Origin: an uncultured virus (IMG/VR IMGVR_UViG_3300023180_000040)
Lineage: Duplodnaviria; Heunggongvirae; Uroviricota; Caudoviricetes
Length of the DNA stretch: 64,000 nucleotides
Reading direction: 5' to 3' (one strand)
IMG/VR virus record: IMGVR_UViG_3300023180_000040
Coordinates: 1 to 64,000 of that record
The notes beneath the pieces are model-generated. The model had not been told where the DNA came from and searched no databases. It worked only from the letters and a program-made list of their open reading frames with translations. Position 1 is the stretch's first letter, and every line of letters starts with the position of its first letter. The position numbers and the translations under genes were made by a program. Below are positions 5,880 through 57,710 of this stretch, one piece after another.

Positions 5880-5952
5880 TAGCGGGGGAAGGATTCGAAC
5901 CTTCGATCTTCGACGCATGAAGCCGACGAGATAACCACTTCTCCACCCCGCG
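5880..5952 (-). tRNA. tRNA-Met(CAU), initiator-like, no encoded CCA
   Basis: Cloverleaf CGCGGGG...TCGGC-TTCATGC-GTCGA...GAAGG-TTCGAAT-CCTTC-CCCCGCT-A; C1/U72 mismatch and A11-U24. Confidence 0.9.
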
Positions 5953-5957
5953 TTGTA

Positions 5958-6239
5958 TGGAGATGACCGGCTCTGCCCCGGTGTCCCATATAGTTCCCTC
6001 AAATCAACTTATACAGCATATTATACTACATTGTACTTCGGTTTACTACTGTGCTTAGTAGTTGTAGACTAAGCGGCTACTCCAGCAAATTCCTCTACCC
6101 ATGAGGCGGGGAAAGTGTCTGGAACGATGACTTCATTTAAGTTGCCATTTATGTTTATTTGCTTATCCAAGCAGGAGTTATGAGGTAACTAACCGCTGAT
6201 TGATTTGGCTTCTCTATAGGTCGAAACTAATTCATCCCC
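5958..6239 (-). ncRNA. ssrA: tmRNA; tag (A)GNLNEVIVPDTFPASWVEEFAGVAA* at 6146-6069
   Basis: 5' GGGGATGAATTAGTTTCGAC; 3' GACACCGG-GGCAGAG-CCGGTCATCTCC-A. Acceptor stem with G3-U70; ATAAAT before the resume codon; tag ends in VAA-stop. Confidence 0.9.
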
Positions 6240-7776: not shown

Positions 7777-7779
7777 TAA

Positions 7780-8030: not shown

Positions 8031-8032
8031 TA

Positions 8033-8747: not shown

Positions 8748-8819
8748 TGGCCCCACTAGGATTCGAACCTAGACCTGAAGGATTAAAAGTCCCCTACGCT
8801 GCCATTACGCCATAGAGCC
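8748..8819 (-). tRNA. tRNA-Lys(UUU), no CCA
   Basis: GGCTCTA...GGGGA-CTTTTAA-TCCTT...CTAGG-TTCGAAT-CCTAG-TGGGGCC-A. Confidence 0.9.
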
Positions 8820-8911
8820 ATATATTAATCTTTAAGTCCCCAATATAAAAACCATAAGAATATTATAACAAGGACTACAAAGAAAAACCAGTCATACCAC
8901 TGCCAATTCAA

Positions 8912-9136
8912 TTAGTTTTCTTTCTGTTTCCATCTTTTATAGTTTATCACATAAATCGTTATGTATCCAACGGTGAGTAAGATAAATCCGTATTGTTTAG
9001 TCATTATACCATAAAAAGTCCAAAGGATTTCTAGGCAACCTAAATAAATCCAAGCCCAAAGTCGGTATTTCCCTACATTCCACATTCCAATTAAACTGAG
9101 TACTGCAAGCACCCAAGAAAGTATATAGATATTCAT
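8912..9136 (-). CDS. Small membrane protein, PnuC-like
   Basis: 74 aa, hydrophobic: 'WAWIYLGCLEILWTFYGIMTKQYGF...NYKRWK'. Confidence 0.6.
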   Translation of the reverse strand: MNIYILSWVLAVLSLIGMWNVGKYRLWAWIYLGCLEILWTFYGIMTKQYGFILLTVGYITIYVINYKRWKQKEN

Positions 9137-9182
9137 AATATTATCCTCTATTACTTATGCTTAGTAATAAAAGATAAATAAA

Positions 9183-9253
9183 ATCCGGGACTAGGATTCG
9201 AACCTAGATTAGAAGGTCCAAAGCCTTCTGTCCTACCATTAGACGATCCCGGA
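9183..9253 (-). tRNA. tRNA-Gln(UUG), no CCA
   Basis: TCCGGGA...GAAGG-CTTTGGA-CCTTC...TTCGAAT...TCCCGGA-T. Confidence 0.9.
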
Positions 9254-9260
9254 GTAAAAC

Positions 9261-9428
9261 TTATTCAGTAACTTGTACTTCTTCTTGTTTAGTGGGTCGC
9301 AACCCAGCCTTTTTAATATTTTTATGCTCTTCTAGCATTTCTTGATGCTTTCGTTGACGTTCAACTTTATTTATTAACGCCCACATTTGATCACGTTGTC
9401 TACGCCACCGATGCTTTGCTCTTGCCAT
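9261..9428 (-). CDS. Small basic hypothetical protein
   Basis: AGGAGG RBS before the ATG of MARAKHRW... Confidence 0.55.
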   Translation of the reverse strand: MARAKHRWRRQRDQMWALINKVERQRKHQEMLEEHKNIKKAGLRPTKQEEVQVTE

Positions 9429-9453
9429 TATTCCTCCTATTTTTAAATAGTGA

Positions 9454-9526
9454 TAGCGCATAGGGGGTTCGAACCCCTGTTGCGGGAATGAAAGTCCCGA
9501 GTCCTAGACCACTAGACGAATGCGCC
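9454..9526 (-). tRNA. tRNA-Glu(UUC), no CCA
   Basis: GGCGCAT...CGGGA-CTTTCAT-TCCCG...TTCGAAC...ATGCGCT-A. Confidence 0.9.
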
Positions 9527-9537
9527 CTATAAGTTTG

Positions 9538-9546
9538 ATTATATCA
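9538..9546 (-). promoter_or_regulatory. Extended -10 promoter TGATATAAT for tRNA-Glu
   Basis: Ends 12 nt upstream of the tRNA 5' end. Confidence 0.55.
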
Positions 9547-9561
9547 AAACCAAAATAGTTT

Positions 9562-9768
9562 TTATAGTTCTAAGTTTGGATCTTTTAAAGCATTTTGTAA
9601 TCTTATCCATGCTTTTTCTTCTGCTTCTAGGTATGATTCAGCAGAAAAATAATTTTTATAAGTTTTACTTATATGAATGTAGTCAGATTTAGCCCTTTGG
9701 AACTCATCAAACGGATCATCCATTGGTCTATAATCTATATCATTAGTCATTGTTTCTTCTTCAACCAT
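9562..9768 (-). CDS. Hypothetical protein
   Basis: 68-aa ORF between tRNAs, RBS AAGGA. Confidence 0.5.
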   Translation of the reverse strand: MVEEETMTNDIDYRPMDDPFDEFQRAKSDYIHISKTYKNYFSAESYLEAEEKAWIRLQNALKDPNLEL

Positions 9769-9828
9769 AGTCGCAATCCTTTGTTATTAGTTTCCGTAAT
9801 AGAAAATAATTATGCACTATTTTTTTAG

Positions 9829-9911
9829 TAGGGGCGGTGGGAGTCGAACCCACAAACCTTACAGGTTAAGGATTTTAAGTCCTCTGCGTATGCCAATTCC
9901 GCCACGCCCCC
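9829..9911 (-). tRNA. tRNA-Leu(UAA), no CCA
   Basis: GAGGA-CTTAAAA-TCCTT, long variable arm, TTCGACT. Confidence 0.9.
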
Positions 9912-9952
9912 TTATTTCTTTTTGTCATGTATGCTCATATTAGTTCTTTTCA

Positions 9953-10024
9953 TCGGCCCACTGGGAATCGAACCCAGATTACGACTTTATAAGAGTCGCG
10001 TCCTAACCGTTGAACGATGGGCCA
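9953..10024 (-). tRNA. tRNA-Ile(UAU), no CCA
   Basis: TGGCCCA...CGACT-CTTATAA-AGTCG...TTCGATT...TGGGCCG-A. Confidence 0.85.
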
Positions 10025-10025
10025 G

Positions 10026-10107
10026 TAGGGAAGGAGGGACTTGAACCCCCACGCCTTGCGGCAACGGATTTTGAGTCCGTCGTGTCTGCCAATTTCACCA
10101 CTTCCCC
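10026..10107 (-). tRNA. tRNA-Leu(CAA), no CCA
   Basis: ACGGA-CTCAAAA-TCCGT, long variable arm. Confidence 0.9.
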
Positions 10108-10110
10108 TCA

Positions 10111-10184
10111 TGGGCAAGGAGGGACTTGAACCCCCGACTTCCTGCGTGTAAAGCAGGCACTCTGACCAACTGAGTTACTCGCCC
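10111..10184 (-). tRNA. tRNA-Val(UAC), no CCA
   Basis: CCTGC-TTTACAC-GCAGG. Confidence 0.9.
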
Positions 10185-10187
10185 AAA

Positions 10188-10260
<73 letters not shown>

Positions 10261-10267
10261 AGGATTA

Positions 10268-10459
10268 TTAACCTGTTAATCCTATACCGCTTGGTCTATC
10301 CTTTTGCATCTGATCTGCCCACTGTTGGGCTTTCTTAACGCGAGGACGCTCTGCCGAAGGCATGCGATCCTGCTCTGACTTATTTGGATGAAGTACTTCG
10401 GGAGTCCCCTTGCGAGGATCTGTGTTCTTCTTACGCTCATTAACCATATCATACTCCAA
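10268..10459 (-). CDS. Small hypothetical protein
   Basis: 63-aa ORF between tRNAs, TGATATAAT upstream. Confidence 0.45.
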   Translation of the reverse strand: MEYDMVNERKKNTDPRKGTPEVLHPNKSEQDRMPSAERPRVKKAQQWADQMQKDRPSGIGLTG

Positions 10460-10471
10460 TCTGTTTTTTAC

Positions 10472-10480
10472 ATTATATCA
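10472..10480 (-). promoter_or_regulatory. Extended -10 promoter TGATATAAT
   Basis: Upstream of the 63-aa ORF and the tRNA run. Confidence 0.5.
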
Positions 10481-10487
10481 TACTGCA

Positions 10488-10558
10488 AGCGGCTAGTCGG
10501 AATCGAACCGACGAATATGGCTTGGAAGGCCAACGTTTTACCCCTAAACTATAGCCGC
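10488..10558 (-). tRNA. tRNA-Gly(UCC), no CCA
   Basis: GCGGCTA...TGGC-CTTCCAA-GCCA...TTCGATT...TAGCCGC-T. Confidence 0.88.
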
Positions 10559-10561
10559 ATA

Positions 10562-10633
10562 CTCGGGAGGCAGGATTCGAACCTGCGACATATCGGTTAA
10601 CAGCCGACTGTTCTACCACTGAACTACTCCCGA
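10562..10633 (-). tRNA. tRNA-Asn(GUU), no CCA
   Basis: GTCGG-CTGTTAA-CCGAT. Confidence 0.9.
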
Positions 10634-13047: not shown

Positions 13048-14619
13048 ATGCAATATAGATTTATTTGGAATATAGATCAAGATCAAATTCACTTTGTAAA
13101 TAATTTTGATTTTGAAGAACCCCTAGAAGATAATTATATCACAGGAGACTATCTTCCTGCTGATAAATCTATTTCTTTATATAAAGAAGATGTTAAAGTT
13201 CCAATAAATTTAGATTATTTTGTTCGTCTATGGAAAGCGTCTGAACCAGATAAAGAGATTGTTAGAGAAAGAGTAGAGGTAGTGAGTTTAAATAAAGTTT
13301 CAAACGTTAGACTTGCCTCAAGTCAAGAAGAAAAGTTGGTCGCCCAGTTTTTAATTGCTGAACATGGTCAAGATAGTATGTTAAATCTAGATAAACTTTT
13401 TGAAGCAAATCCTACTCCCGATGATGTAAGAAGATACTTTATTCCTTTTATAAAGAAGTTTAATCAAAACACTTTTAAGCAATTCCCTGACAACCTTCCT
13501 AGAAACGCAAAGCAATGGAGAGCCTTATCAGAAGAAGAAGTTTTTGCTTATGTAGAATATTTTGCAAATAATATATCAAGAGGCGATCAACAACTTGCTA
13601 ATTCTTTAACTCAAGCAATGATGGATAAATGGGAAATGGATGGAGTTCCATTTGATCCTGCGGAATATATCATAGATGAGGGAATGATAAACTGGAATGA
13701 AGTTCGATCTTTACTATTAAGAGAATTTGGCAATTCATTTAATTTGTTTTCTAAATGGGAAAAAGTTTCTGACTATGGAGGCTGGACAAACTGGGAAACG
13801 TTTTTGACAAATAACATTATGGAAAACGAATTTAATATATATAAATATTTTTTAGATTTAGCAAAAAAAGCCATTAGTAAATACCCAAGTGAAACTTTTT
13901 TTGAATTAAAAGAAGTTTGGCGTGAAAAAATTGAAGAAATGGTTATTGATGTACATAACAGAACCTGTGACGAAACAGAACGAATTGATGATATTCTGAA
14001 AGTAGACTTTGATGAAATTTTAGGTCATTGGTTTGAAAAAGTAAACGAAGAATTAGGTTACGATGAAGTTTATTCTTTACAAAGAAAAAATCAAATTCTA
14101 GATAAGTGGGAACCCGAAAGTTGGTGGAAAGGGTCTAAATGGAATAAAATCTCAGATCATAATGGCTGGACAAACTGGGAAACTTGGAACGTTAATCTTA
14201 TGATGGAAAACGATTATGATGACTATTTGTATTTTACGGATTTAGCAAAGAAAAATATTTCTGTTGATGACTTTGCTATGGCAGCAATCGAAAGAGTAAT
14301 TGGTCCATATAATGAACAACTTAGAAACGATTTTGCTGAATATACCGATGAAGAAGAAATTTTAATGCAATTAGAAAATGATGATCAAAAATGGCGAAGC
14401 GATGCTGAAAGAAGATATCCAGACGATCCAGAGGCTCAAGAAGATTATATTAGAAAAATGCGAGAGATTGTTTATGGCCTAATGGGAATTCCTGAACCGA
14501 CAGATATAGCAAATCATTGGCTAGATGAGTCCAAAGTGAACTGGCAAGAAATTTACGAACATTGGATTAACAATACAAAAGAATCAAGTTGGAAGGTATT
14601 GAAGTGGAAGAGAATTTAA
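13048..14619 (+). CDS. Modular acidic protein with repeated GWTNWET...[IV]NWxE[IV] domains
   Basis: Two GWTNWET copies, each preceded by SKWxK[VI]S; ends KWKRI. Confidence 0.7.
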   Translation: MQYRFIWNIDQDQIHFVNNFDFEEPLEDNYITGDYLPADKSISLYKEDVKVPINLDYFVRLWKASEPDKEIVRERVEVVSLNKVSNVRLASSQEEKLVAQFLIAEHGQDSMLNLDKLFEANPTPDDVRRYFIPFIKKFNQNTFKQFPDNLPRNAKQWRALSEEEVFAYVEYFANNISRGDQQLANSLTQAMMDKWEMDGVPFDPAEYIIDEGMINWNEVRSLLLREFGNSFNLFSKWEKVSDYGGWTNWETFLTNNIMENEFNIYKYFLDLAKKAISKYPSETFFELKEVWREKIEEMVIDVHNRTCDETERIDDILKVDFDEILGHWFEKVNEELGYDEVYSLQRKNQILDKWEPESWWKGSKWNKISDHNGWTNWETWNVNLMMENDYDDYLYFTDLAKKNISVDDFAMAAIERVIGPYNEQLRNDFAEYTDEEEILMQLENDDQKWRSDAERRYPDDPEAQEDYIRKMREIVYGLMGIPEPTDIANHWLDESKVNWQEIYEHWINNTKESSWKVLKWKRI

Positions 14620-17600
14620 TCCATAAAAAGTCTAACATTCTAGATCCGATTCACGATACTTTAGATCAAGATGTATTTAACGGGATGACTCCCAAAAGTG
14701 CTTTTTTTGAATATCACTTAGATCACGTTAGAGAAGTTTTTAGACAAAACAACTTTAACCCATATGCTTTTGATTTCTATTTAACAGGTTCTCTTTGTAC
14801 ATATCAATATTCGGAAAAATCAGATGTAGACATTTCTATTGTTTGTAACGCCGACGAGTTTGATGAAGAAGATCGTGCAGATCTTATTGCTATTGTGATT
14901 GAATCTTTAGACGGCACCTTCTTTCCTAGAACTAAACACCAATATCAACATTTTGTTCAACCAATTGGTGTAGACATTGAAGACCTTTTTATTCTCGGTC
15001 TTAGAAGCGCGTGGGATTTTCAAAAAAACGAATGGGTTCTTAAACCAAAAAGACCAACTACAGATATTAAAAAAGAAAAGCCTGATTGGATTCTAATGGG
15101 GGTTCAGGTATCTGACAAAATTAATACTTTGATTGATAATCATAAATATGAAGATGCTAAGGCAATGTATAAAAAAGTGCATCAAAAAAGAAAAGAAGAT
15201 CAGATTGACTATGGCGATTACAGCGAAGGTAATGTTATTTATAAATTTTTAGATAATAACGGAACATTTGATCGCCTAAAAAATGTTGGACAAAGAATTG
15301 CTTTTCAAAAAGAAGCATTTACAAAAGACGATTTTGTAAATTATTATTATGAATCTACTTTTTATAATAGATCTTTTCGTCAAAAAACACATCTAAACTC
15401 TAAAGGGTATCCTTGCGACTGCACCTTTGGCAAAAAAGACCTAAAAGCAGTTGCTCAATATTATAATAATATAAATAAAACCGATAGTGAAGATTTTAAA
15501 TTCAGTTTTAATAAAAATAGCAACGAGGGTGAAGAATCCAAGATAAAGCAAATCGCTCAAAAAATCCTTGATAAGCAGATCAGTGAAGAATCAAAATGGA
15601 ATAAAAGATACCCCGTTTGGAAAGAGCGTTTACAATCTATTGTTGATATGGGCGTTTTAACGGAAGAAAGCATTAAATTTTGGGGAGGAATTATTTCTTT
15701 GTACAAAAAAGCAGTACAAAGAAATGATGTGATGATCAATAATAATGCATATAGAATGTATCTTTTTAGTGGACCAACTGATCCTTTATATAGAGATAAA
15801 GATTATTTACAATCTTATAAAGAAGATTTTAGAAAACTTTGGACGGGAAACTTTGGTAAAAATACAAAAGTTGGAGATTTTATTAATAGTGAAAACTATG
15901 AGTTTCTTGGCGAATCATATGACTGGAGCGCCGAATCAGAGTTTATTGGGACAATAGATCGCTTACTTTACACAGATATTTCTTTAGATGAAGAAATAGA
16001 TTTTAGTTGGCGCTGGTGGTTTAGTTTACAAAACTCAGACAATAATCAATTAAACAATAAATTGCAAAAAATTGAAAATCTTTTTAATCAAAAAATTAAA
16101 GAAATGAAAAAAGATAATCATTTAGATTTTGGGTTTTTGACTACCTTAAATAAAGTTTCTATGCTATTAACCGATAGATATGGAAACTATGTAGAAAATT
16201 TTGAAAATATATTAGATATGATTTTAGACGGATCAATATTTAAAATGCGTCCAGAAGAAGTTTTAGATTTCTATGTACAAAACAGGTCTAACTATCCGGC
16301 TAGAAATACTATATTTGAAGGTGCCGTAAATGCAATTCAATATATGAACAGTATAAGGCTTCAATATCTCTTAAATGAATATAAAGACTTAAGATTTCCT
16401 ACAAATTTAGAAGGAATGGATAGTTTTAATGAACTAAGCCTTTCTCTTCGTCAGATAGAAACAGAAACAAAAGAAAGAGAAGAATATAAAGAATTATTAA
16501 GACAATTTAAAGAAGGAGAAGTCGCATACGAATCAGATAGTCCTGTTTTTACTTTTGAAGTTAAAAAAGGTAATCCCGAAAAAGCAAAACCGGGAGTTTG
16601 GGGAGTATACCGACTTGAAAGTACAGACGATTTAGAATTAGAAGGAAGGATATGTAACCACTGTATTGGAAGTTGGGAACAGCCTCATATTAGAAGAAGG
16701 GATGAAGATCTTAATACTGTTTATTCTGTGCGCGACCCGGATGGAGTTCCTTGGACAACTTTGGAATTAGATAAAGAAGGGGTGATTCTGGGACAAGCGT
16801 TTGGTCGTCAGGATCATGCCGTAAGACAAAATGAACAAAAGATTTTAAATGCTTTCTTCGGACAAGAAAGTTTTCAAAGACAAAGCAAAAATCCAAATAA
16901 ATATATAGTCAGAACAAGAAATGGTAAAGAGTATGTTTATAACGCATCAAGCACAGAAGATGCAGTCGAACAACACAAAGAGGCAATAAAAAGCATACCA
17001 CTTCCATTTGATTACCCCCGATGGGCTTATGAAGAAGAAATAAAAGGACTCAAAGCAGTTGCGGCATATGGTGCTGGTCACGATTGGTTTGATAAACCAG
17101 AAGGACAAAGAAGTGGTCTTTATTATGAGAGCGATTTGCCCGTTGCAGAAGAAGATATAGAAACAACTGAATATCATATGGAACCAGATGTTTTTTGGGG
17201 ACTTTCAAATATACCCGAAATATCTAGTGGTGATGAATTAGAAACGCTCTGGCAATGGGTAGAAGGTGACTATGGCGAGAGCGCTTATTTGTTTGATATG
17301 ATGAATTATTATTATCCAGATGAAGACACCCCGGTAGAGGAACTAGAAAGAGATGACTATGGATATGCTCTCGTTAGAATAGTAGAGCCATATACTTTTG
17401 ACGGGTCATATTCAAATGTTTTTAATTTTATAAATTCTATTGTAGAAAAATACGAAAATTTGCTTTTTGATGAAGAAAATAATATTTCAGATGAAATATG
17501 GGATTTTTATGAATCAGTAAAAGGACTTGGAACATATATTATTTTAACCTCTATTTCTACAGGACAAATTGAAAAAATTATTAATACCTATGTAAATGCT

Positions 17601-18551
17601 TTTGATTTTTATGTACAAAAACAAACATCTATGTTTTACAAAGAAAACAAAAAAAACAAAATTGCAATTTTAAATGGAATTAGAATAGTTTTAAAAGATT
17701 TAATTTCAAGTGTTGATTATACAACTTCGGTAAATGATATATACCATTTGTTTGATGATTCAGAAATTTCTAAAAGTCTAGAAAGTGAATATGGAAGTTG
17801 GAACTATAATTACGACTTTGAAAATTCTTACGTTGAATTTCAAATAGAGCCAAAATCAATGCCTAAAGAAGAAATTAATCAATCAAGAACATATTTAATA
17901 AATTATGTTCAATATGCAATTAATTTGTCTGAAGAAATAAAAGAATTGACGAGAAATTTTTTTGAAAGAAATTTAAACTCTCCTATTCAAAGAACAATTT
18001 GGTTTAATCAAAATGAAAATACATTAACTGGACCTCCTTTAGAACTTGAAGAAAAACAAATTCAGCCGGGAGATAGTGATTCGGATAAAGAAAGAAAATT
18101 GATACAACAAGACCTTCTGCGAAAAGAAGTTGATGATTCTGGTCTGTATGAAACAAAACTTAGAGAACTAAGAGATATTGTATACTACATTGCTAAAGAA
18201 ACAGGATTAAATGCAATTGTAAATCCAATAAATAAAATGTTCAATGACAGATTTCAACTTGGATCATATAATTCTAGATTTTTGGAAAGAAGCATGAATG
18301 AATTAATTAATTTATTAGAATATGCAAAAAATACTATTTATATGAATGAAAATCCAGACGCTGGAGCAGGAGGAATTGCTGGTGGGCAAATAAACTTTTA
18401 TATGATGCCGCCAGAACCTAGCACAGAAGAATTCGAAAGATGGGAAAGGGTACAAGAAGGTTTATTAGCGACTACAGAACCTTATAAGGGAGAAGATAGT
18501 TGGGGTTCTGAAGGATTTGCCCCAGATACAAGTAGGCGAAGAGGAATTTAA
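14589..18551 (+). CDS. Large multidomain protein: Pol-beta-type nucleotidyltransferase plus PcfJ-like domain
   Basis: 'LTGSLCTYQYSEKSDVDISIV' (GS...DxD); 'LELEGRICNHCIG...YSVRDPDGVPWTTLE'. Confidence 0.75.
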   Translation: MEGIEVEENLIHKKSNILDPIHDTLDQDVFNGMTPKSAFFEYHLDHVREVFRQNNFNPYAFDFYLTGSLCTYQYSEKSDVDISIVCNADEFDEEDRADLIAIVIESLDGTFFPRTKHQYQHFVQPIGVDIEDLFILGLRSAWDFQKNEWVLKPKRPTTDIKKEKPDWILMGVQVSDKINTLIDNHKYEDAKAMYKKVHQKRKEDQIDYGDYSEGNVIYKFLDNNGTFDRLKNVGQRIAFQKEAFTKDDFVNYYYESTFYNRSFRQKTHLNSKGYPCDCTFGKKDLKAVAQYYNNINKTDSEDFKFSFNKNSNEGEESKIKQIAQKILDKQISEESKWNKRYPVWKERLQSIVDMGVLTEESIKFWGGIISLYKKAVQRNDVMINNNAYRMYLFSGPTDPLYRDKDYLQSYKEDFRKLWTGNFGKNTKVGDFINSENYEFLGESYDWSAESEFIGTIDRLLYTDISLDEEIDFSWRWWFSLQNSDNNQLNNKLQKIENLFNQKIKEMKKDNHLDFGFLTTLNKVSMLLTDRYGNYVENFENILDMILDGSIFKMRPEEVLDFYVQNRSNYPARNTIFEGAVNAIQYMNSIRLQYLLNEYKDLRFPTNLEGMDSFNELSLSLRQIETETKEREEYKELLRQFKEGEVAYESDSPVFTFEVKKGNPEKAKPGVWGVYRLESTDDLELEGRICNHCIGSWEQPHIRRRDEDLNTVYSVRDPDGVPWTTLELDKEGVILGQAFGRQDHAVRQNEQKILNAFFGQESFQRQSKNPNKYIVRTRNGKEYVYNASSTEDAVEQHKEAIKSIPLPFDYPRWAYEEEIKGLKAVAAYGAGHDWFDKPEGQRSGLYYESDLPVAEEDIETTEYHMEPDVFWGLSNIPEISSGDELETLWQWVEGDYGESAYLFDMMNYYYPDEDTPVEELERDDYGYALVRIVEPYTFDGSYSNVFNFINSIVEKYENLLFDEENNISDEIWDFYESVKGLGTYIILTSISTGQIEKIINTYVNAFDFYVQKQTSMFYKENKKNKIAILNGIRIVLKDLISSVDYTTSVNDIYHLFDDSEISKSLESEYGSWNYNYDFENSYVEFQIEPKSMPKEEINQSRTYLINYVQYAINLSEEIKELTRNFFERNLNSPIQRTIWFNQNENTLTGPPLELEEKQIQPGDSDSDKERKLIQQDLLRKEVDDSGLYETKLRELRDIVYYIAKETGLNAIVNPINKMFNDRFQLGSYNSRFLERSMNELINLLEYAKNTIYMNENPDAGAGGIAGGQINFYMMPPEPSTEEFERWERVQEGLLATTEPYKGEDSWGSEGFAPDTSRRRGI

Positions 18552-20534
18552 ATGGATAATCTAAGTGAATATATACTAAGATTAGTAAGAAATAATCCTG
18601 CGGCAAAAACAGTTGTTGAACTATTATCTCCATTTGGAGAAGTTTATGTAGTTGGTGGAGCGGTTAGAGATGTTCTTCTTCAAAAGAAACCAAAAGACAT
18701 AGATTTGGTAGCAAGAGTAGACGAAGATACAATTAAGTCTGTATTAAGTAATTTCCCAAATGCAACATTAAATAAAACTGGAAAACAGTTTCCAGTATAT
18801 AGGTTTAGATATCAAAACGAAGAAGTAGAAATTGCTTTACCAAGAATAGAAACTAAGGTTGGAGAAGAAAGTAAAGATTGGGAATTTAAAAGTGATCCGT
18901 CTATTCGAATTGAAAGAGATTTAGAAAGAAGAGATTTTACTGCAAACGCAATTGCCGTAAACGCTCAAACCGGAGAGATTGTAGATCCTTTAAATGGAAT
19001 TGATGATATTGAAAAGGGATTGTTAAGAGTTATCAATGAAAACTCTTTTAGAGATGATCCTTCAAGAACGCTTAGAGCATTAACTGCAATAAGCAAGCAC
19101 GGTTTACAACCAGATGAAAAAACTAAAGAACAAATGCGTAAATATGGCCCGTACTTGGCTAAAATCGCTCCAGAGATTATGGGCATGGAATTAGATAAAA
19201 TACTCAGCGGAGAACATCCTCATCAAGCAATACAAATTGGTCAACAAACCGGAGTATTAGAACACTTCTTGCCAGAAGTTCATACAACATTTGGTTACGA
19301 TCAAAAAAACAAACATCATAATTATGATCTAGGGACTCACCTGATGGAAGTTGTCAAAAATATGGCTCGCAGATCTGATGATACAGATATGAGACTCGCG
19401 GCTTTGTTTCACGATATTGGCAAACCAGATTCTGTTTGGTACGACGAAGAGGGAAATGGTCACTATTATAAAAATGATTCTGGTCAAGGACAAGACCATG
19501 AAACTGTTGGCGCACAAATGGCTGAAGATATTTTAAGAAGATTAAGATATCCTGCAAACAGAATAGCAAGAATTAAACAATTAATTCAAAATCATATGTT
19601 CCCCATTTTTAATTCATCAAAGGGAGCAAGAAAGTTTCTTAATCAAGCCGGTTCTTACGAAATTGCTCATAATTTACTTGATCTTAAAGAGTCAGATTAT
19701 TTAGGTAAAGGCAATGATAGTGCTACAAGAGAAATGTCTGATTTAATGAGGCAATTAATTGATGCTGAATATGAAGCACAAAATGCTTTTACTCCCAAAG
19801 ATTTAGCAATTAATGGCAACGAAGTTATGCAACTTTTAGGCATTGATAGTGGCCCTCAAGTGGGAGAAATACTGAAATCTTTGATGGATATTGTTGTTGA
19901 CAATCCTGAAATGAATACAAAAGATAACTTGTCTTCATTTATTAATAACTTCTATAAAAGTTCATCAAATGTAGAGTCAGCAATTCTTGAAATATCAAAG
20001 CAAATTAGAAGAGAAGCCGCTTGGCGCGACGTTGAAATGAAAGCAAAACGTCTAAAAGATGGCGGTCAAGTAGTAATAAACACCAATGCTGAAAATGCAG
20101 TTGAAGGAGTAGTACAGGGTGATAATGGTATTTACGAATGCATAATATATAGAGAAGACCCTAGCAGTCAAAGAATTACGCATTGGAACTGTGAGTGTAA
20201 ATGGGGTCAGTATGCATACGGAAGAACAAGAAAATATAAGAAATTTGAAGGTCGGCCATGTTCTCACGTTATGGCAATGTTTTGGGAGTCAAGATCCTTA
20301 CCAGTAGGGTATTTTGGAGCAGAGTTTGATCCTAATCAAACTTACAGTTTTGAACCAGATGCTCCAAACTATCAAGTTGTTCAACAAGATGTTTCTCAAG
20401 CAGGTAATCCGTTAGAGTTAGAAAATCAAAATTCTGAGTTTCCTCCTATGCCGCAAGGACAATCTCCTGCTCCACCTAATTTTGAAGAGGGGGAAAGAAG
20501 ATCGTCAATTAAAAATAAATGGAAAAGGATTTAA
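18552..20534 (+). CDS. CCA-adding tRNA nucleotidyltransferase (with HD domain) fused to a C-terminal SWIM zinc-finger module
   Basis: 'YVVGGAVRD..DIDL', 'DLERRDFTANAIA', 'FRDDPSRTLR', 'LFHDIGKP'; SWIM 'CECKW...PCSH'. Confidence 0.9.
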   Translation: MDNLSEYILRLVRNNPAAKTVVELLSPFGEVYVVGGAVRDVLLQKKPKDIDLVARVDEDTIKSVLSNFPNATLNKTGKQFPVYRFRYQNEEVEIALPRIETKVGEESKDWEFKSDPSIRIERDLERRDFTANAIAVNAQTGEIVDPLNGIDDIEKGLLRVINENSFRDDPSRTLRALTAISKHGLQPDEKTKEQMRKYGPYLAKIAPEIMGMELDKILSGEHPHQAIQIGQQTGVLEHFLPEVHTTFGYDQKNKHHNYDLGTHLMEVVKNMARRSDDTDMRLAALFHDIGKPDSVWYDEEGNGHYYKNDSGQGQDHETVGAQMAEDILRRLRYPANRIARIKQLIQNHMFPIFNSSKGARKFLNQAGSYEIAHNLLDLKESDYLGKGNDSATREMSDLMRQLIDAEYEAQNAFTPKDLAINGNEVMQLLGIDSGPQVGEILKSLMDIVVDNPEMNTKDNLSSFINNFYKSSSNVESAILEISKQIRREAAWRDVEMKAKRLKDGGQVVINTNAENAVEGVVQGDNGIYECIIYREDPSSQRITHWNCECKWGQYAYGRTRKYKKFEGRPCSHVMAMFWESRSLPVGYFGAEFDPNQTYSFEPDAPNYQVVQQDVSQAGNPLELENQNSEFPPMPQGQSPAPPNFEEGERRSSIKNKWKRI

Positions 20535-22116: not shown

Positions 22117-22494
22117 ATGAGTGCATTTAAAAGCGGGGAATACGTTAAAAATTTAGTTGAGATTGAGGGTACTGTAGTTGAGTATCGTCCACAGGATCAT
22201 CCAACAGATCCTACAGTTAATCCCGGTAAAAGCGGGCCAACTCCAGATACTCAAATTAATCAAAAAGTTAGGATACGAGAAGGTCAAGTCGGAACAGTTA
22301 TGTATTCTGACGATATAACTACTATTGTTACTTACGATTTACATACAACGGGACCACTTGAACCTCATCTTATTAAAGCAGAAAGTTTTACTTCTAATTT
22401 TAAAAGAGTTGTTAGAGGGACTAGACCCTCTAGAGGACCAAGTTATTTCCCAGATCGTAGACCTCCAAGAACAAATCCAACAGGAATGAATTAA
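22117..22494 (+). CDS. Hypothetical SH3/KOW-like protein
   Basis: 'FKSGEYVK...IREGQVGTVMY'. Confidence 0.5.
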   Translation: MSAFKSGEYVKNLVEIEGTVVEYRPQDHPTDPTVNPGKSGPTPDTQINQKVRIREGQVGTVMYSDDITTIVTYDLHTTGPLEPHLIKAESFTSNFKRVVRGTRPSRGPSYFPDRRPPRTNPTGMN

Positions 22495-22495
22495 T

Positions 22496-23371
22496 ATGTG
22501 GAAAAAATCTATGCCAAGGGGACTTGGGCCTTCAATTGAAGAAGGTGCAAATATAATTAGACAATTTGCGCTAACAAGAAACCATGCTAATGGCGAATTT
22601 GGTTTTTCAACTGAAGACTTATGGCAAAGTGAAAATTGGCGCAACTATTGGTATGGGTTTGAACAACCAAATTATCAACAAATTAATGCTAGAATTGCAA
22701 GAGCAAAACAAAACAACTACATAGCGTCAGTCGGTGGCCTTTTTTGGTGGAAAGAAAACAGTAAGTATACGATATTTGAATTTGCAAAAGTTATGAATAC
22801 TTATTCAATTGATTTACCAAAATATGTTCATGACTTGTTTTATAACAGAATTTCACAAGAAATATTTAAAACTGATAAAAAACTTAATGATTCTCTTTAT
22901 TATCTTCAACTTCTACAAGAACGTTTACAAAATCAAAATAGAAACTTAACTTTCGACGAATATTTAAATATTAATAATCAATATAATAAATTTTATATGG
23001 AAAATATTGAAGCAAAAAAAACTTTTATTGATAATAAATACTATAAAGTGCTAAAAGAAATTGAACAGGCACAAGAAAAAGAAGTAGAAAATTTTAAAAA
23101 AAGTTCAACTCCACAAGAATGGCTCAAAACAAACTTTTCTAAAAATACTAGTCTTTATCTTCAACAAATAGTTGAAATGTTCTTAAAAGTTCCAGAAGAA
23201 ACCTTAGAAGAATACAATAAAACTTTTTCTGCACAAAATCAAACACCACAAAATATACAATCATTAGAAGAAAGTCCTGTTCTTGATATAGTAAGTCCTA
23301 AAAAACAACATGAACAATATTGGATGAATTATTTTAACACTACATCAAAAAGCAAATGGAGAATTATTTAA
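22496..23371 (+). CDS. Hypothetical protein (starts MWKKS, ends KWRII)
   Basis: 291-aa ORF tightly coupled to its neighbours. Confidence 0.65.
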   Translation: MWKKSMPRGLGPSIEEGANIIRQFALTRNHANGEFGFSTEDLWQSENWRNYWYGFEQPNYQQINARIARAKQNNYIASVGGLFWWKENSKYTIFEFAKVMNTYSIDLPKYVHDLFYNRISQEIFKTDKKLNDSLYYLQLLQERLQNQNRNLTFDEYLNINNQYNKFYMENIEAKKTFIDNKYYKVLKEIEQAQEKEVENFKKSSTPQEWLKTNFSKNTSLYLQQIVEMFLKVPEETLEEYNKTFSAQNQTPQNIQSLEESPVLDIVSPKKQHEQYWMNYFNTTSKSKWRII

Positions 23372-31251: not shown

Positions 31252-34200
31252 GTGTCTGATTTCGCGTTTAAAATGTCCAAGAAAGATAGAAAATTAGCAA
31301 TGGGTGAAAAAGTAAGTCCAGCCGATGAAAATTATGATCCAGAGGGAGAGGAATGGCCCGACCCCCTAAGTGAGCCAGATAGTTTTGTTCAGCAACTTTT
31401 ACAGAATGTAAACTCTCTTCGTAGAAAAGAAGAGTTTAAGACTGAAGATGTTGATGAATTTGAGGGCTATCTTATGGACTTCTTAACTACTTGTTCAGAC
31501 CCAGAATTGGGAGAAGAAGATCTACCCGGAACTGGTTTTATTATTGAAGTGATGAATACGCAAGATAAAAATTATAACGGAATTAGTTCTGTTTCTAATT
31601 ATCAAAAAGAGTCTGCTCTACCCCTAGCGGCTGCTGCCGCCGTATTTGGCCCACAATTGGTTAAATCTGGTTTGCCCAAAATTATGCCATATGTAAAAAA
31701 GGGTCTTTCAGCAGTAGGTCTTAGTAATGCTCTTCGTAACGTTCCAATTGTTGGTAATTTGTTTGGTGGTGGTGGACAAGAGGAAGCCGTTCAACCAATT
31801 CAAATGATGAATACAACAGCCCCGGGTATGGCTCCACAAGCATCAGTAAGCCGTTCTGATATGCCATTTGATCACATCTCAGATAATTTAATGTTTGAAG
31901 CCGCTTCAGGAATTAAGAAGAAGGATTCAGATATTGAATCATTAAGAGCGCAAGTTAATTCTGCGTTAACTCAATGGGCAAAATCTGGTGAAGTTACAGA
32001 GAACCGCGCTGTCTGGTGGGCACTTTATAGTTATGCTCACGAAGCGGAAACAATTGCTGAACTTTCTTCTATTTTAACTGCTGTTCCAGAACAATATCAC
32101 AATTCTGTTTTGAATACCCCTGTTGGGTTAGAGGAAGAGGCTCCCCCAGAAGGAAATACTGGATTGCCAGAACCATCATCTCCCACAGATGCTATGTCTC
32201 CAACAAATACAAATATGAGTCCTATTCCGATTGATGGAGTAGGAACGCCACCTAAGATGCCTCAAAACCAACAAACTCTTATTCCCGGAGCAGTAGCGGC
32301 ATCTCACGATTCTCTTAGAGTAAAGCCAGTTTTTGCTTCTCTTGATGAATCAAAATTTGATGGTTATGTAGAAGAAGACCGTCCAGTTCTCGCAAGAGTA
32401 GCGGCTTTTATGGAAGCGGGAACTCACGAAAGCGATATTATTAATACTCTTTATCCATCATATGGGCACGAATATACTATTTGGGCGCTTGAACAGGTAA
32501 AGAGAGTAGCCAGCAATGATCCGCTAGTAGATCCTTCAATTGTTAATATGGGAATTGAATGGAAAGAAGCAGGGAATGACCCGCATGATTTACCAGAAGG
32601 TATGCATCAGATGGATATCATGGAAGTGCTTGAAGATGTTGAAAAAGAGAAAAAAGAAAAAGCAAAGAAAGAAAGAACTAATAACAAATTCCCCTCAAAA
32701 GGAGAAAATGTAGGAGCAAATTCTGAAGAAAAGATTAATCAGCAAGAAACTTCTGGAATGATTACTCCGCAACAAGAAAAAGTTGCTGCTGCTGATTATC
32801 TTCTTATGAATCAAGAATTGCAACATGATGAAGATGCATTGCAATTAATGCCTCAAGCGTATTTAGAAAAAAAATTGTTCTATCCTTACCATTTTCTTGC
32901 ACAAGAAGTCGTAAATACTGGAGATTCAAGAAAGGCTATGGCCGATCTAGAAAATATTGAAGCATTTATTGAAGATTATGCTGAAAACTATCTTGAAACT
33001 GCAATAAATAATGTTTATTCAGATGAAGTAGTTGAAGAATCTATCGAACAAAGTGGAAGAGATATAGACCCTATGGAAGCAAAAGAGTTAGTTGAAGAAG
33101 TTTTTGTGTTAGCCATTAGAAGTCTTCAGGCACAAAATGAAAGAATAAAACAAGGACTTCAAATGCTTGCTGAAGTTATGCCTCCAGAGATAATGGGTAA
33201 TACAGACGCTATGATGCAACAGTTAGACTCATTAGGCATGGGTGTAGAAGAGTTTAATGCTGGAATAAAAGCAATAATTGATGAAATTCAAGGAGTTTCT
33301 GGAATGTTTAAAGACAACATTGGTCCAGAAATTGGTTTTCTTCCTGAAGATATCGAAAAGTCAGAAAGACTGCAAGAAGAGCAAGGTGTTTTTGCAGATC
33401 CCAGAACAATTATTAAAGACCCAGAAGATTTTCAAATGGATGAAAGAGACAGAAGAGCGTTAGGGCAGTTTGGAATAGATTTACCAAGAGAATCTAAAAA
33501 AAAAGAATCTGATTTCACATCATTACCCAACAATACGTTAGCACAAACTCCATCTCCTTACGATCAATCGTATAATCAGACAATGGGGATTGCTCAACAA
33601 ACATCTCAAATGGGCGATGCTGTTATGACACAGCAAGCCTATCAAGCAGGTTCTGATGCGACTCCAGATCCCGGCGTTCTTGGGCAACTTCAACAGCAAC
33701 AAGAAGAAGAGGCGCAATTGCAAGAAATGTATCCAAACGTGCCAACTGATATGACAAGACAGTGGTTGCAAAGACAACAACAGCAACAACAGTCATCGGG
33801 GCACCCAATGCAAACTGCTGAACAACAGTCTTCTGCCGGTCAAACAGCCACTAACGCTGGTCAAGGGCTTTCTTCAGCAACAACTTCAAAAGTTGCTGCA
33901 TGGAAAGACGTAAGAGGAAATGTTTTAGTTAAAGATAAATTGTATAAGATGACTTCATCTGATTATGAAATTCCTGACTATGTTAGAATAGTAAACAATG
34001 GAACTCGTTTGGATCTATATATCCCAAGAGGCGACTTAGATGTAAGTCTTAGTGAATCAGAAATAAGGCAATCAAATTATAGTTTTGAGCCAATTGAAAA
34101 AGATTCTCAAAAAACTTCTTTCCTATCTGAGTCCACCTTAAGTACAAACGAGCAAAGGGCGCTTATTGAAGAACAAGGTATTGCTCGCAATATGGATCGC

Positions 34201-34320
34201 TTAAATTTAGAAGGTACGCATTATCCAACATTGATGCAAACAAGCAAAAATGATAAAATAGATCTAGAAGAAATTCCTCTAAAAGATTTTTTTATAGAAG
34301 ATTTTGATTTATTTATCTAA
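31252..34320 (+). CDS. Large acidic modular protein, putative internal head protein
   Basis: 1022 aa; many [KR]x[AS] boundaries; C-terminal 'EQRALIEEQGIARNMDRLNLEGTHY'; AAGGAG RBS. Confidence 0.7.
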   Translation: MSDFAFKMSKKDRKLAMGEKVSPADENYDPEGEEWPDPLSEPDSFVQQLLQNVNSLRRKEEFKTEDVDEFEGYLMDFLTTCSDPELGEEDLPGTGFIIEVMNTQDKNYNGISSVSNYQKESALPLAAAAAVFGPQLVKSGLPKIMPYVKKGLSAVGLSNALRNVPIVGNLFGGGGQEEAVQPIQMMNTTAPGMAPQASVSRSDMPFDHISDNLMFEAASGIKKKDSDIESLRAQVNSALTQWAKSGEVTENRAVWWALYSYAHEAETIAELSSILTAVPEQYHNSVLNTPVGLEEEAPPEGNTGLPEPSSPTDAMSPTNTNMSPIPIDGVGTPPKMPQNQQTLIPGAVAASHDSLRVKPVFASLDESKFDGYVEEDRPVLARVAAFMEAGTHESDIINTLYPSYGHEYTIWALEQVKRVASNDPLVDPSIVNMGIEWKEAGNDPHDLPEGMHQMDIMEVLEDVEKEKKEKAKKERTNNKFPSKGENVGANSEEKINQQETSGMITPQQEKVAAADYLLMNQELQHDEDALQLMPQAYLEKKLFYPYHFLAQEVVNTGDSRKAMADLENIEAFIEDYAENYLETAINNVYSDEVVEESIEQSGRDIDPMEAKELVEEVFVLAIRSLQAQNERIKQGLQMLAEVMPPEIMGNTDAMMQQLDSLGMGVEEFNAGIKAIIDEIQGVSGMFKDNIGPEIGFLPEDIEKSERLQEEQGVFADPRTIIKDPEDFQMDERDRRALGQFGIDLPRESKKKESDFTSLPNNTLAQTPSPYDQSYNQTMGIAQQTSQMGDAVMTQQAYQAGSDATPDPGVLGQLQQQQEEEAQLQEMYPNVPTDMTRQWLQRQQQQQQSSGHPMQTAEQQSSAGQTATNAGQGLSSATTSKVAAWKDVRGNVLVKDKLYKMTSSDYEIPDYVRIVNNGTRLDLYIPRGDLDVSLSESEIRQSNYSFEPIEKDSQKTSFLSESTLSTNEQRALIEEQGIARNMDRLNLEGTHYPTLMQTSKNDKIDLEEIPLKDFFIEDFDLFI

Positions 34321-55589: not shown

Positions 55590-57710
55590 ATGCCAGAATT
55601 CCCTAAATTAACTCCAGAAGAGCAAGCAAGAGTAATTAAAGAATTAGGTGGTACGCTTCCCAAGCATGATATTCGTAAGAAAATGGCTGCTTGGGAGGCT
55701 TATAACCTTGCAGGAAGTGACCCAAACGGCCCAGATGGACTCCAAGCAACAATTGGAGATATGAGGGCTAATAGAGCGCTTGCCTCTGAATTTGCTCGCA
55801 ATCGAAGAGTATCTTCTGTTCAAAAGACAGCAGCCGGTGGTGGTGATTATATTGCTGCTATCCCTCGTTTCTATGATCCTGTAGAGTATTGGGAACTTTC
55901 TGGGATTCCGTGGAATATTCAAAACGATACTCACCGTCGTAAATTGTATCAGTGGTTGCGTCTGTATTATATGACACACTACTTAGTTCCTATTCTTATT
56001 GATATTTTTACTAGATTCCCCCTAGTAGGAATTGAACTAACATCAAAAGATCCAAAACTTACTCAATGGTATGAAGATCTTTTCTTTGACCGTCTTGATT
56101 ACCAAGAGTTTCTTGTACGAATGGGTCGTGAATACTGGACCGTAGGACAGGCTTTCCCGCTAGGATCTTTTAATGATACTTTAGGTATTTGGGAAAGGGA
56201 AGAACTGATTAACCCAGAAGATGTTGTTCTTAAACAATATCCGCTTCTTGGTACTCAACAGTTTGAGATTAAGCCTCCTGAATTCTTAAGAGAACTAGCA
56301 ACAAAGAAAAGCCCTACTCAAGATTATACTACTCTTGAAAGAGATTGGCCGGAACTAATCCCTTATCTTACTAAGAATGAAAACATTCCTGTTTCTAATA
56401 TTCTTATGAAGCAAGTAGCATTTAAAATTAATGATTGGGATGTTCATGGCACTCCGCTTCTGTTAAGAGGATTGCGTACACTTATCCATGAAGAGAAGTT
56501 AATGGCTTCACAGGATGCTATTGCTGAACGTCTTTATTCTCCGCTGATTCTTGCTAAGTTGGGTGTTCAAGATATCGGTGATGGTGTGCCGTGGATGCCC
56601 GGTCCAGATGAGTGTGAAGCATTCCGTGATGATATTGATATCGCTCTTGCTTCTGATTTCCGAGTTCTTGTTCACCACTTTGGAGTAGATATTCAAAACG
56701 TATTTGGTCGTGAACAAATGCCAAATCTAGGCGAGGATTTTGATCGTATTGAGCGTAGATTGATGCAGTTGTTTGGAGTTAATCCAAGTCTACTATCTGC
56801 TGGTTCTAATTCTCAACCATACGCATCTTCAGCATTGCAGGCTGAGTTCTTAAATCAAATTCTCCGCACATACCAAAACTTCCTAAAAAGACATTTTATG
56901 GAAAGAGCAAGAGTTGTTGCTGAAGCAAATGAACATTATGACTATGAACAACGCGGAGATACTAGAGTCCCAATAATGGAAGAGCATGTTGAATATGATG
57001 AAGAAGGAAACATCATGGTTGTTGAAAGACACAAATTGCTCATTCCAGAGATTAATATGAAAGTTCTTGATCTTCGTGATGAAGCAACTCAACGTCAATT
57101 CCTTGCACAACTCAAGTCTTCTGGTGTTCCAATATCAGATCAAACATTCATGGTTGGCTTGCCCTATACATTCAAAGAAGAACTTGCTAAATTTGAAGAA
57201 GAAGCAATTGAAAAGACAGTTGCACAACAAGAAGCCAAAGTTAAGATTTACAGATTACTTAAGGCTAAGAACCTACCTATCCCTGCGGATCTATTACAAG
57301 AAATTATGGCAGCAGGACTTGATCCAAATGCTGGATTAGATCCAAATGAATTCCCCGCAATGGATCAGGGCTTGAATCAAATGGGAATGGATGCTATGAT
57401 GGGTGATATGGGTCAGGCTGGTCCTGTCTCTGGTCCTATGGGTATTGAGATGCCTCCAGAGCCGGGTGGATTACCTCCAGCAGCAGCACCTATGTCAACA
57501 ACTCCGGGTGGAATGCCAGAAATTTCTAATGAAAGAACTCCGATTCAACCTCCCGGTGGTAGATCTAGTATGAGTAAAGTCGTTGAAGAAAAAGAAGGAA
57601 GATTGGTAGAGAAGTTAAATCTACCTAAGAATTCTAAGAAAATTTCTTTAATTAGAGAAGATATAAAACCCGAAAAACCTCAAGAAGAAACTAATAACAC
57701 AAACGAGTAA
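55590..57710 (+). CDS. Portal protein
   Basis: 'LVPILIDIFTRFPL', 'EYWTVGQAF', 'GTPLLLRGLRTL', 'AIAERLYSPL'; Pro/Gly/Met-rich tail; downstream of TerL. Confidence 0.75.
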   Translation: MPEFPKLTPEEQARVIKELGGTLPKHDIRKKMAAWEAYNLAGSDPNGPDGLQATIGDMRANRALASEFARNRRVSSVQKTAAGGGDYIAAIPRFYDPVEYWELSGIPWNIQNDTHRRKLYQWLRLYYMTHYLVPILIDIFTRFPLVGIELTSKDPKLTQWYEDLFFDRLDYQEFLVRMGREYWTVGQAFPLGSFNDTLGIWEREELINPEDVVLKQYPLLGTQQFEIKPPEFLRELATKKSPTQDYTTLERDWPELIPYLTKNENIPVSNILMKQVAFKINDWDVHGTPLLLRGLRTLIHEEKLMASQDAIAERLYSPLILAKLGVQDIGDGVPWMPGPDECEAFRDDIDIALASDFRVLVHHFGVDIQNVFGREQMPNLGEDFDRIERRLMQLFGVNPSLLSAGSNSQPYASSALQAEFLNQILRTYQNFLKRHFMERARVVAEANEHYDYEQRGDTRVPIMEEHVEYDEEGNIMVVERHKLLIPEINMKVLDLRDEATQRQFLAQLKSSGVPISDQTFMVGLPYTFKEELAKFEEEAIEKTVAQQEAKVKIYRLLKAKNLPIPADLLQEIMAAGLDPNAGLDPNEFPAMDQGLNQMGMDAMMGDMGQAGPVSGPMGIEMPPEPGGLPPAAAPMSTTPGGMPEISNERTPIQPPGGRSSMSKVVEEKEGRLVEKLNLPKNSKKISLIREDIKPEKPQEETNNTNE

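Follow-up and report, generated by a model that had tools for sequence, protein, structure and literature searches.

The 64,000-nucleotide stretch considered here (the window; positions 1 to 64,000 of IMG/VR record IMGVR_UViG_3300023180_000040, from an uncultured virus of the Caudoviricetes) carries at 18552-20534, on the plus strand, an open reading frame (ORF) of 660 amino acids (aa) in which a class II tRNA nucleotidyltransferase (NTase) with an HD domain (aa 1-470) runs by way of two K/R-x-A/S linkers into a SWIM zinc-finger module. The explanation favoured here, held as a whole (cassette, maturation of the phage's own RNAs, cleavage and head carriage) at a probability of roughly one half, is that a Bxz1/Myrna-like myovirus would keep a cassette of swappable protein modules set apart by K/R-x-A/S joints, one of them being an active class II CCA-adding enzyme with a 3'-end-healing HD domain. 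Its main job would be to complete the phage's own CCA-less tRNAs and transfer-messenger RNA (tmRNA), and damaged ends could be restored as well. An in-frame join would have tied this enzyme to the next gene, which encodes the family's conserved SWIM head-region module. The resulting chain would be made late, with the head maturation protease cleaving it at its K/R-x-A/S joints; the freed HD-CCA enzyme would then finish the tRNAs and tmRNA, with the HD domain clearing cyclic phosphate before re-addition, and as cargo carried in the head it would be on hand when infection starts.

The fusion gene and its parts are the following.
18552..20534, plus strand: fusion gene, CCA-type nucleotidyltransferase + HD + SWIM + Pro/Gln/Glu-rich tail (ORF, Pfam, 11 related clusters)
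18552..19961, plus strand: class II tRNA nucleotidyltransferase with HD, aa 1-470 (PHROG 2244, E 1.2e-71; 64% identity to the unfused gene of relative L027)
18696..18704, plus strand: motif A, catalytic DxD (D49, D51)
18927..18935, plus strand: motif B, RRD (126-128)
19053..19067, plus strand: motif D, amino-acid template DDxxR (168-172, DDPSR)
19335..19697, plus strand: HD phosphohydrolase domain, with H263, H287-D288 and D382 intact
19950..19964, plus strand: linker 1, FYKSS (467-471), the CCA/SWIM gene join point of sister phages
20004..20018, plus strand: linker 2, IRREA (485-489), K/R-x-A/S directly ahead of the SWIM module
20022..20309, plus strand: SWIM module, aa 491-586 (C547, C549, C570, H572), homologous to the inner module of Myrna gp96 and Finch gp16
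20310..20531, plus strand: low-complexity tail ending in KWKRI (656-660), which came with the SWIM gene (the L027 SWIM gene also ends in KWKRI)

The fusion is real, since both halves are present in four other assemblies (protein identity 100%, DNA identity 99.86-99.98%) and a search of proteins of 363-1155 aa with the SWIM half returned 12 clusters, each of them a CCA-SWIM fusion of 637-665 aa. The 11 clusters other than that of the window, at 90% identity, have the same domains and length class, and an assembly artefact or a frameshift is thereby excluded as the source of the join. Pfam places PolyA_pol at aa 31-159, RNAbd at 184-244, HD at 262-360 and NucTran2_2 at 324-463; SWIM is matched at 535-578 (E 0.0014, 18.6 bits, slightly below the cut-off of 19.6, above which many homologues score). 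The original prediction had described an NTase with HD that continues through FYKSS and IRREA into SWIM and ends in KWKRI, and ORF, Pfam matches and motif positions bear out each of these parts.

The catalytic set of the enzyme, DxD (D49-I-D51), RRD (126-128) and DDxxR (168-172), is intact, and it is retained in 10 of the 12 fused proteins and in their sister clade. The flexible loop (98-120) is present with its basic/acidic pair R98-x-E100, and among fused proteins it is deleted only in P0010 and P0012; these two of the 11 fused relatives have lost DxD, loop, RRD and DDxxR and have retained HD and SWIM. The HD metal ligands H263, H287, D288 and D382 are invariant in all 12 fused proteins. DDxxR is described as a natural template of CCA- and A-adding enzymes, EDxxR being natural too (PMC11784652, PMC7947759), loss of the flexible loop as a hallmark of CC-adding enzymes (PMC7947759), and removal of 2',3'-cyclic phosphate as an activity of CCA-enzyme HD domains (PMC6961547). 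Among NCBIfam models the actinobacterial CCA family TIGR02692 ranks first (206 bits), above PRK10885 for multifunctional Cca (161) and PcnB (110). The signature of bacterial poly(A) polymerase (PcnB) was found neither in the window enzyme nor in any of 82 clade members. The motifs, the presence of HD, the missing signature and the PcnB score of 110 against 206 bits for CCA exclude a poly(A) polymerase, and the CCA-type identity proposed earlier stands. From these motifs the NTase is probably active as a class II CCA-adding enzyme. The CCA head has decayed repeatedly among relatives, with only a remnant of it left in P0028, P0088 and L050 (G016).

The RNA genes that such an enzyme would serve lie on the opposite strand.
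5880..5952, minus strand: tRNA-Met(CAU), no CCA
5958..6239, minus strand: tmRNA, terminating at the discriminator A, no CCA (Rfam, acceptor stem, tag frame)
8748..10633, minus strand: ten tRNA genes (Lys, Gln, Glu, Leu-UAA, Ile-UAU, Leu-CAA, Val, Arg, Gly, Asn), no CCA

The 11 tRNAs are found by ARAGORN and Rfam alike, and CCA is encoded in none of the 12 RNA genes of the window, as had been claimed; the description needs one correction, namely that a single C follows the discriminator in three of the 11 tRNAs (Lys, Leu-UAA and Leu-CAA). The tmRNA at 5958-6239 scores 39.1 bits in Rfam (gathering 47; E 4.9e-13 across the whole model), its 7-bp acceptor stem is paired and its tag frame ends AA-stop; ARAGORN missed it, and a lowered threshold yielded noise only. 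Its body is covered without differences by RNA-library contigs in 4/4 runs, the contigs attesting presence only and leaving the 3' ends unreached, and contigs from these libraries overlap the fusion gene in patches from which level, strand and 3' ends are not readable. Three overlapping contigs of the same phage hold the identical 11 tRNAs and no further ones; a 98-nt tRNA-Cys call outside the window was dropped, as Rfam gives it no support.

All 11 tRNAs and the tmRNA have T or C immediately 3' of the discriminator, and by eye, with no tally, the same applies to nearly all tRNA genes of cassette-bearing relatives (L080-L088); Myrna-like records mostly retain a single C at this position. The pattern may reflect the host's 3'-processing nuclease. 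The tRNA-Ile with a UAU anticodon (window 9953-10024), uncommon in bacteria, is also found in L016, L027 and L033. Within the tRNA/tmRNA region, on the same strand, window 6253-8560 encodes a UDP-galactopyranose mutase, a deaminase-fold protein and a SpoU-type RNA methyltransferase.

In this phage group tRNA genes usually lack CCA, whether the enzyme is present or not. None of 300 tRNA genes encodes CCA in 11 sources with a cassette enzyme (the window included), and in six relatives without the enzyme 11 of 91 do, leaving 80/91 CCA-less; in the main cluster of Myrna the count is 2/29. Because CCA-less tRNA genes also occur where the enzyme is absent, the CCA enzyme of the host can serve most of these phages. 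The notion that the enzyme is 'matched' to CCA-less RNAs was thus overstated, and tight matching is rejected by these counts. The number of tRNA genes was compared in 22 author-chosen records, 11 with CCA near SWIM and 11 long ones without it, 13 of them at least 90% complete. In this near-complete set, the six records with the enzyme have 47, 36, 44, 28, 35 and 29 tRNAs and the seven without it 0, 3, 5, 0, 0, 24 and 0, a complete separation (1 in 1716 by arithmetic) among records that are related and hand-picked. One of the seven enzyme-less records has a decayed CCA head and zero tRNAs. The presence of the enzyme thus goes with a high number of tRNA genes. This speaks for maturation of the phage's own RNAs, rather than dedicated counter-defence, as its main selective use; counter-defence as a main purpose is unlikely.

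The modular setting of the enzyme is seen most clearly in its relatives. Proteins longer than 1155 aa searched with aa 1-468 gave 166 matches; among the 120 listed, 99 have a near-full CCA module, almost always with intact motifs. In these 99 the module follows a shared upstream module in 67 cases, is accompanied by a second nucleotidyltransferase in 17 and by SWIM in one. Other domains found on one chain with CCA modules are 2H, Fic, GNAT and Arr. Around 47 independent SWIM loci in viral contigs (up to 10 kb per side) a CCA gene occurs in 20 and the second NTase in 25, and none of the 47 has CCA fused to SWIM. A full Pfam scan of SWIM proteins, covering the best 149 other representatives of 841 clusters, found an intact CCA module in one (P0082). 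SWIM as an obligatory carrier of CCA is ruled out by these three counts (1/149, 1/99 and 0/47).

In L027 and L033, close kin with 64% identity in CCA, the same tRNA cluster and the same gene order, CCA and SWIM are abutting genes, the SWIM start following directly on the CCA stop. The window protein corresponds to CCA 1-470 plus an entire SWIM gene of the L027/L033 type, KWKRI end included. The CCA gene of these kin has an additional domain of 165 aa (L027 8037-9947, aa 470-636) that recurs in P0163 and P0041, has no Pfam match and is absent from the window's contig. L041 encodes CCA and SWIM in different frames. When 77 CCA modules were placed in a quick IQ-TREE tree (SH-aLRT support only; P0004-P0007 left out), the nine fused rows came out as a single clade (SH-aLRT 96) with L027/L033/L036/P0162 as its sister group, lying within the polyprotein-borne modules. 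Judged by tree and gene order, the fusion is a single derived join within a cassette whose genes freely split and merge and, since the fused proteins form one clade and sister phages have abutting separate genes, it is incidental, a recent accident of gene order. The earlier view that the SWIM fusion makes the enzyme special does not survive its single origin, the separate genes of the sisters and the presence of SWIM in 1/99 polyprotein-borne CCA modules.

Genes around the fusion share this modular character.
13048..14619, plus strand: cargo-like gene ending in KWKRI; its N-terminus resembles by eye the pre-CCA module of relatives, which BLAST did not confirm
14589..18551, plus strand: upstream polyprotein of 1320 aa, with a second Pol-beta-type nucleotidyltransferase at aa 14-238 and a PcfJ-like module further on
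22117..22494, plus strand: small protein, homologue of a C-terminal module of SWIM-bearing polyproteins (18 BLAST matches among the 149 representatives)

Relatives have the second nucleotidyltransferase on one chain with CCA or with SWIM. In the window it spans 14628-15302 (GS...DxD); NTP_transf_2 is matched in 19-29% of Atlas cluster members, and the enzyme also accompanies some SWIM loci without CCA. A K/S-W-K/R-R/K-I/V motif (KWKRI, KWRII) ends or lies in window 13048-14619, 18552-20534 and 22496-23371, and in L027 9947-10504 and 12100-13581; it is possibly a shared tag, distinct from the K/R-x-A/S joints.

The joints themselves, noted in the original prediction as linker motifs, prove to be real boundary motifs. 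Ahead of SWIM, K/R is found in 107 and A/S in 118 of 144 homologues (the SWIM rows having enough upstream sequence), four and two residues before the first Trp. Directly before the CCA module, the strict K/R-x-A/S pattern is found in 64 of 81 anchored clade members (3/84 without anchor), against a mean of 9.5/81 and a maximum of 45/81 in control windows of the same size inside the CCA module. The motif is kept across proteins that are about 40% identical, and it is frequent in the protease/scaffold protein. Relative to shuffles it is 1.2-1.9-fold in nine head/cargo proteins, 0.95-1.3 in 16 replication/metabolism proteins and 0.8-1.0 in 11 tail proteins. The portal N-terminus has the motif in 8/12 loci (6/10 distinct), a count made with no control and given no weight.

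The SWIM module links the cassette to the head region. It matches 224 GenBank phage records, in single copy each, 209 of them Mycobacterium phages, and HMMER finds it in the 841 representative clusters. In Myrna gp96 and Finch gp16, SWIM is the inner part of a large protein flanked by the portal and protease-capsid genes; the proposed check for relatives with SWIM and without the CCA part is answered by proteins such as Finch gp16, Finch being without a CCA enzyme. A portal gene lies within 10 kb of SWIM in 21/47 independent loci. The earlier claim of cargo-like neighbours is upheld in that the surrounding genes are modular and that SWIM belongs to a head-region protein in isolated relatives. 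In most of the best 149 representatives SWIM is the sole Pfam match; its chain partners, in one or a few members each, are Macro, Acb1/2H, Fic (2), GNAT (3), NUDIX, ADP-ribosyltransferase, cREC, HNH, PcfJ and YunG. No zincin peptidase or MuF anchor was matched by Pfam (E 1e-4) in the window protein or in these 149.

The SWIM ligands C547, C549, C570 and H572 are kept in 92-100% of 144 homologues. The AlphaFold2 model of the module (pLDDT 91) has as its best solved matches ZSWIM8 (Z 7.2, rmsd 3.6, 86 aligned) and Shu2 (Z 4.7), and it also matches Finch, Skog and Myrna proteins (Foldseek TM 0.71-0.79 to the gp96/gp16 type). A conserved patch of basic and aromatic residues, W-x-R-T-R-x-W-K-K, hints at a nucleic-acid- or peptide-binding role. 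Nine of the 149 SWIM representatives contain inteins (P0094, P0098, P0117, P0118, P0119, P0125, P0130, P0132 and P0158), most with a LAGLIDADG endonuclease, and the SWIM module is there matched in two stretches. Inteins usually sit in conserved essential sites, and their presence therefore suggests that the module is essential.

The head genes place the phage and supply the candidate protease.
31252..34320, plus strand: protein with the C-terminal motif of Myrna gp96 (57% over 30 aa, E 0.001)
55590..57710, plus strand: portal protein of Myrna/Finch type, 41% identical, which places the phage in the Bxz1/Myrna-like group

Because of this portal identity the phage is regarded as Myrna/Bxz1-like; the window also encodes a terminase. 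An overlapping contig comes from the same phage, with 99.86% identity both across the tested 707-bp overlap and across 18 kb surrounding the gene. It encodes a gp97-type protein, the N-terminal domain of which matches a head maturation protease (PHROG 18299, E 5.6e-26), and a capsid protein that shares 56% identity with Myrna gp99. This protease/scaffold protein (L097 2471-5218, protease domain at 2471-3496) has an insert of about 70 aa in the protease domain after KEA, of HicA-type fold by eye. Modules like those of gp96 and gp87 lie at window 31252-34320, 50276-53116 and 53104-55530, in genes where K/R-x-A/S is frequent; of the gp96 parts, the C-terminal motif is confirmed and the N-terminal beta module recognized by eye only. 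The gp96 modules thus appear to be distributed over several genes in the window phage. Upstream of its head genes the same phage encodes a 3236-aa protein without Pfam or PHROG match (L096 3942-13652) and a 1151-aa PcfJ-bearing protein (L096 13690-17145).

From motif placement and gene content, there is about an even chance that the head protease cuts the chain at its joints and that virions package the enzyme, which may also be ejected into the cell. A number of observations count against the favoured explanation. The neighbours of the fusion gene are lysis and tail-fibre genes; the portal is about 35 kb away and the capsid gene about 43 kb. The joint motif is short, its enrichment in head/cargo proteins is modest (1.2- to 1.9-fold), the strict pattern is also enriched in replication proteins (1.3-fold, z 2.2), the patterns for the shuffle test were picked after the data had been seen, and at the internal C-boundary of CCA the motif is found in 11/23 only. 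For the enzyme, every NCBIfam score is below cut-off, and the ERxxxE position reads EIxxxE (first Glu retained, Arg lost) in the window and in 9/11 fused relatives; ERxxxE is present in 49/83 polyprotein-borne relatives, and the downstream motif ERxxxExxxhh is described as marking CCA-adding and sRxxxE as marking A-adding enzymes (PMC10673834). The contrast in tRNA number comes from chosen, phylogenetically non-independent genomes, and outside its near-complete set three incomplete enzyme-bearing records (70-87% complete) have 0, 0 and 3 tRNAs; enzyme-less records exist with 24 and, in an incomplete one, 36 tRNAs. A literature search found no proteomics or cleavage data for any gp96-type protein; mass spectrometry is reported for Rosebush by Podgorski 2020 (PMC7150772), in the main text of which gp96, gp97 and gp87 are unmentioned.

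An alternative, possible and rather doubtful, is an ordinary, non-virion tRNA maturation enzyme made during infection, the joints being flexible, recombination-prone linkers and SWIM acting in the cell. In its favour, Myrna has its CCA enzyme, gp28, as a gene of its own, 31 kb away from gp96 and surrounded by small non-structural genes, the tRNAs of Myrna are CCA-less too, a CCA-enzyme match occurs in 707 phage records, and in the window phage the gene is distant from the head genes. The region's best sigma-70-like site lies 280 bp upstream of the gene, in a region where the count of such sites is at chance (46 vs 38 +/- 7). Such linkers would be at odds with the retention of the boundary motif across proteins of about 40% identity and with its frequency in the protease/scaffold protein, and the partners of SWIM elsewhere (Macro, Acb1, ADP-ribosyltransferase, Fic, GNAT and NUDIX) are typical early effectors.

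A dedicated, injected counter-defence, along the lines of the original prediction, is improbable. Here HD would strip 3' or cyclic phosphates left by tail nucleases and the NTase would rebuild the CCA of host tRNAs immediately on entry, with the help of the second nucleotidyltransferase. The phosphatase activity known for CCA-enzyme HD domains would suit this role, as would the 2H, Fic, GNAT and Arr domains on the same chains as CCA modules and the retention of HD and SWIM in P0010 and P0012 despite their lost NTase motifs. Immunity that cuts the CCA tail exists in the form of Cas12a3, which according to its authors phage tRNAs cannot bypass (PMC12851939). The enzyme follows the phage's own tRNA number, however, down to the tRNA-less near-complete record in which only a decayed enzyme is left, and a host CCA enzyme is already there, HD-bearing in E. 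coli and mycobacteria. Cas12a3 is moreover described as removing 2-4 nt up to the discriminator (PMC12851939), and cuts past C74 would not be rebuildable by CCA addition alone; no tail-cutting defence is known for the host. It is similarly improbable that the K/R-x-A/S-jointed polyproteins of Bxz1/Myrna-like myoviruses, with SWIM as a core head component, load a kit of HD-CCA and second nucleotidyltransferase into the capsid for injection as a prompt reply to tRNA-tail-cutting immunity such as Cas12a3. That the NTase is only partly active (adding only CC or A, with the upstream second NTase or the host finishing the end) or decaying, the gene being kept for HD and SWIM, is very unlikely: EIxxxE in place of ERxxxE, the poor performance of human E164D (the DDxxR form) under full CCA-repair selection (PMC11784652), the NTase motifs lost in 2/11 fused relatives and the decayed heads of P0028 and P0088 speak for it, and against it stand the flexible loop, still present here, and the motifs retained in 10/12 fused proteins and the sister clade.

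Phage CCA enzymes and polyvalent virion proteins are both already known, and it is their combination that was not found in the literature searched. Phage class II CCA enzymes with HD (PHROG 2244, Myrna gp28 and those of jumbo phages, PMC7824862) have the same architecture and motifs and occur in tRNA-rich phages; for jumbo phages the relevant passages of that source propose restoration of tRNA 3' ends and leave SWIM unmentioned. The 707 GenBank phage matches are below 60% identity and none spans 80% of the fusion, and the window enzyme differs from the known ones in belonging to a separate clade within linker-delimited polyproteins and in being joined to SWIM. Relative to bacterial Cca (E. coli Cca and mycobacterial CCA with HDIG), TIGR02692 and then PRK10885 are the best NCBIfam models and the HD residues are intact, whereas the window protein scores below the equivalog cut-offs, has EIxxxE for ERxxxE and bears a C-terminal SWIM.

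The polyvalent proteins of Iyer et al. 2017 (PMC5512222) chain unrelated effector domains in the same way; they are encoded near late genes and are predicted to be packaged and processed, and they have GNAT, ART, NUDIX and Pol-beta NTase domains in common with the cassette. They differ in having embedded zincin peptidases and often a MuF anchor, where the cassette has K/R-x-A/S joints and, as candidate cutter, the head protease. Their trait of disparate enzymatic domains on one chain is seen here at the level of the family and weakly in the window protein, which has two modules; as to their late/virion-gene setting, the window gene is beside lysis and tail-fibre genes and 35-43 kb from the head genes, and a portal is nearby in 21/47 SWIM loci. 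The main text of PMC5512222 has no CCA, Myrna or PcfJ, and names SWIM for SWI2/SNF2 ATPases only. Myrna gp96, Finch gp16 and Bxz1-like counterparts (PHROG 2940, 30974) have the same SWIM (35-40% identity) and the same R/K-x-A joint before the module, but in Myrna and Finch SWIM is embedded in a large low-complexity protein, encoded between the portal and protease genes, whose chain bears no enzyme, and Finch has neither CCA enzyme nor tRNAs. ZSWIM8 and Shu2/SWS1 have the same helix, beta-sheet and CxC...CxH finger at 16% identity, a likeness of fold that is no proof of function. The internal proteins of T4 are the type of protease-processed head cargo; the window phage has a head protease gene and the motif at module borders, cutting of the motif being predicted only. 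No publication was found on a CCA-SWIM fusion or on K/R-x-A/S processing in Bxz1-like phages, in a search outside which most subscription papers lay.

The fusion is itself minor, and its interest is that it exposes a system in which short basic joints string enzymes together about a conserved SWIM module. The Myrna-like group is large and mostly uncultured, and the enzymes so strung include CCA-HD, the second nucleotidyltransferase, Macro, Acb1, Fic, GNAT and ADP-ribosyltransferase. In its cultured members (Myrna, Finch and the cluster C mycobacteriophages, on M. smegmatis) cleavage and packaging can be tested directly. According to PMC12851939 no phage resistance to tail-cutting immunity is known; if a tRNA-end enzyme is indeed injected, it would be a candidate answer to such immunity.

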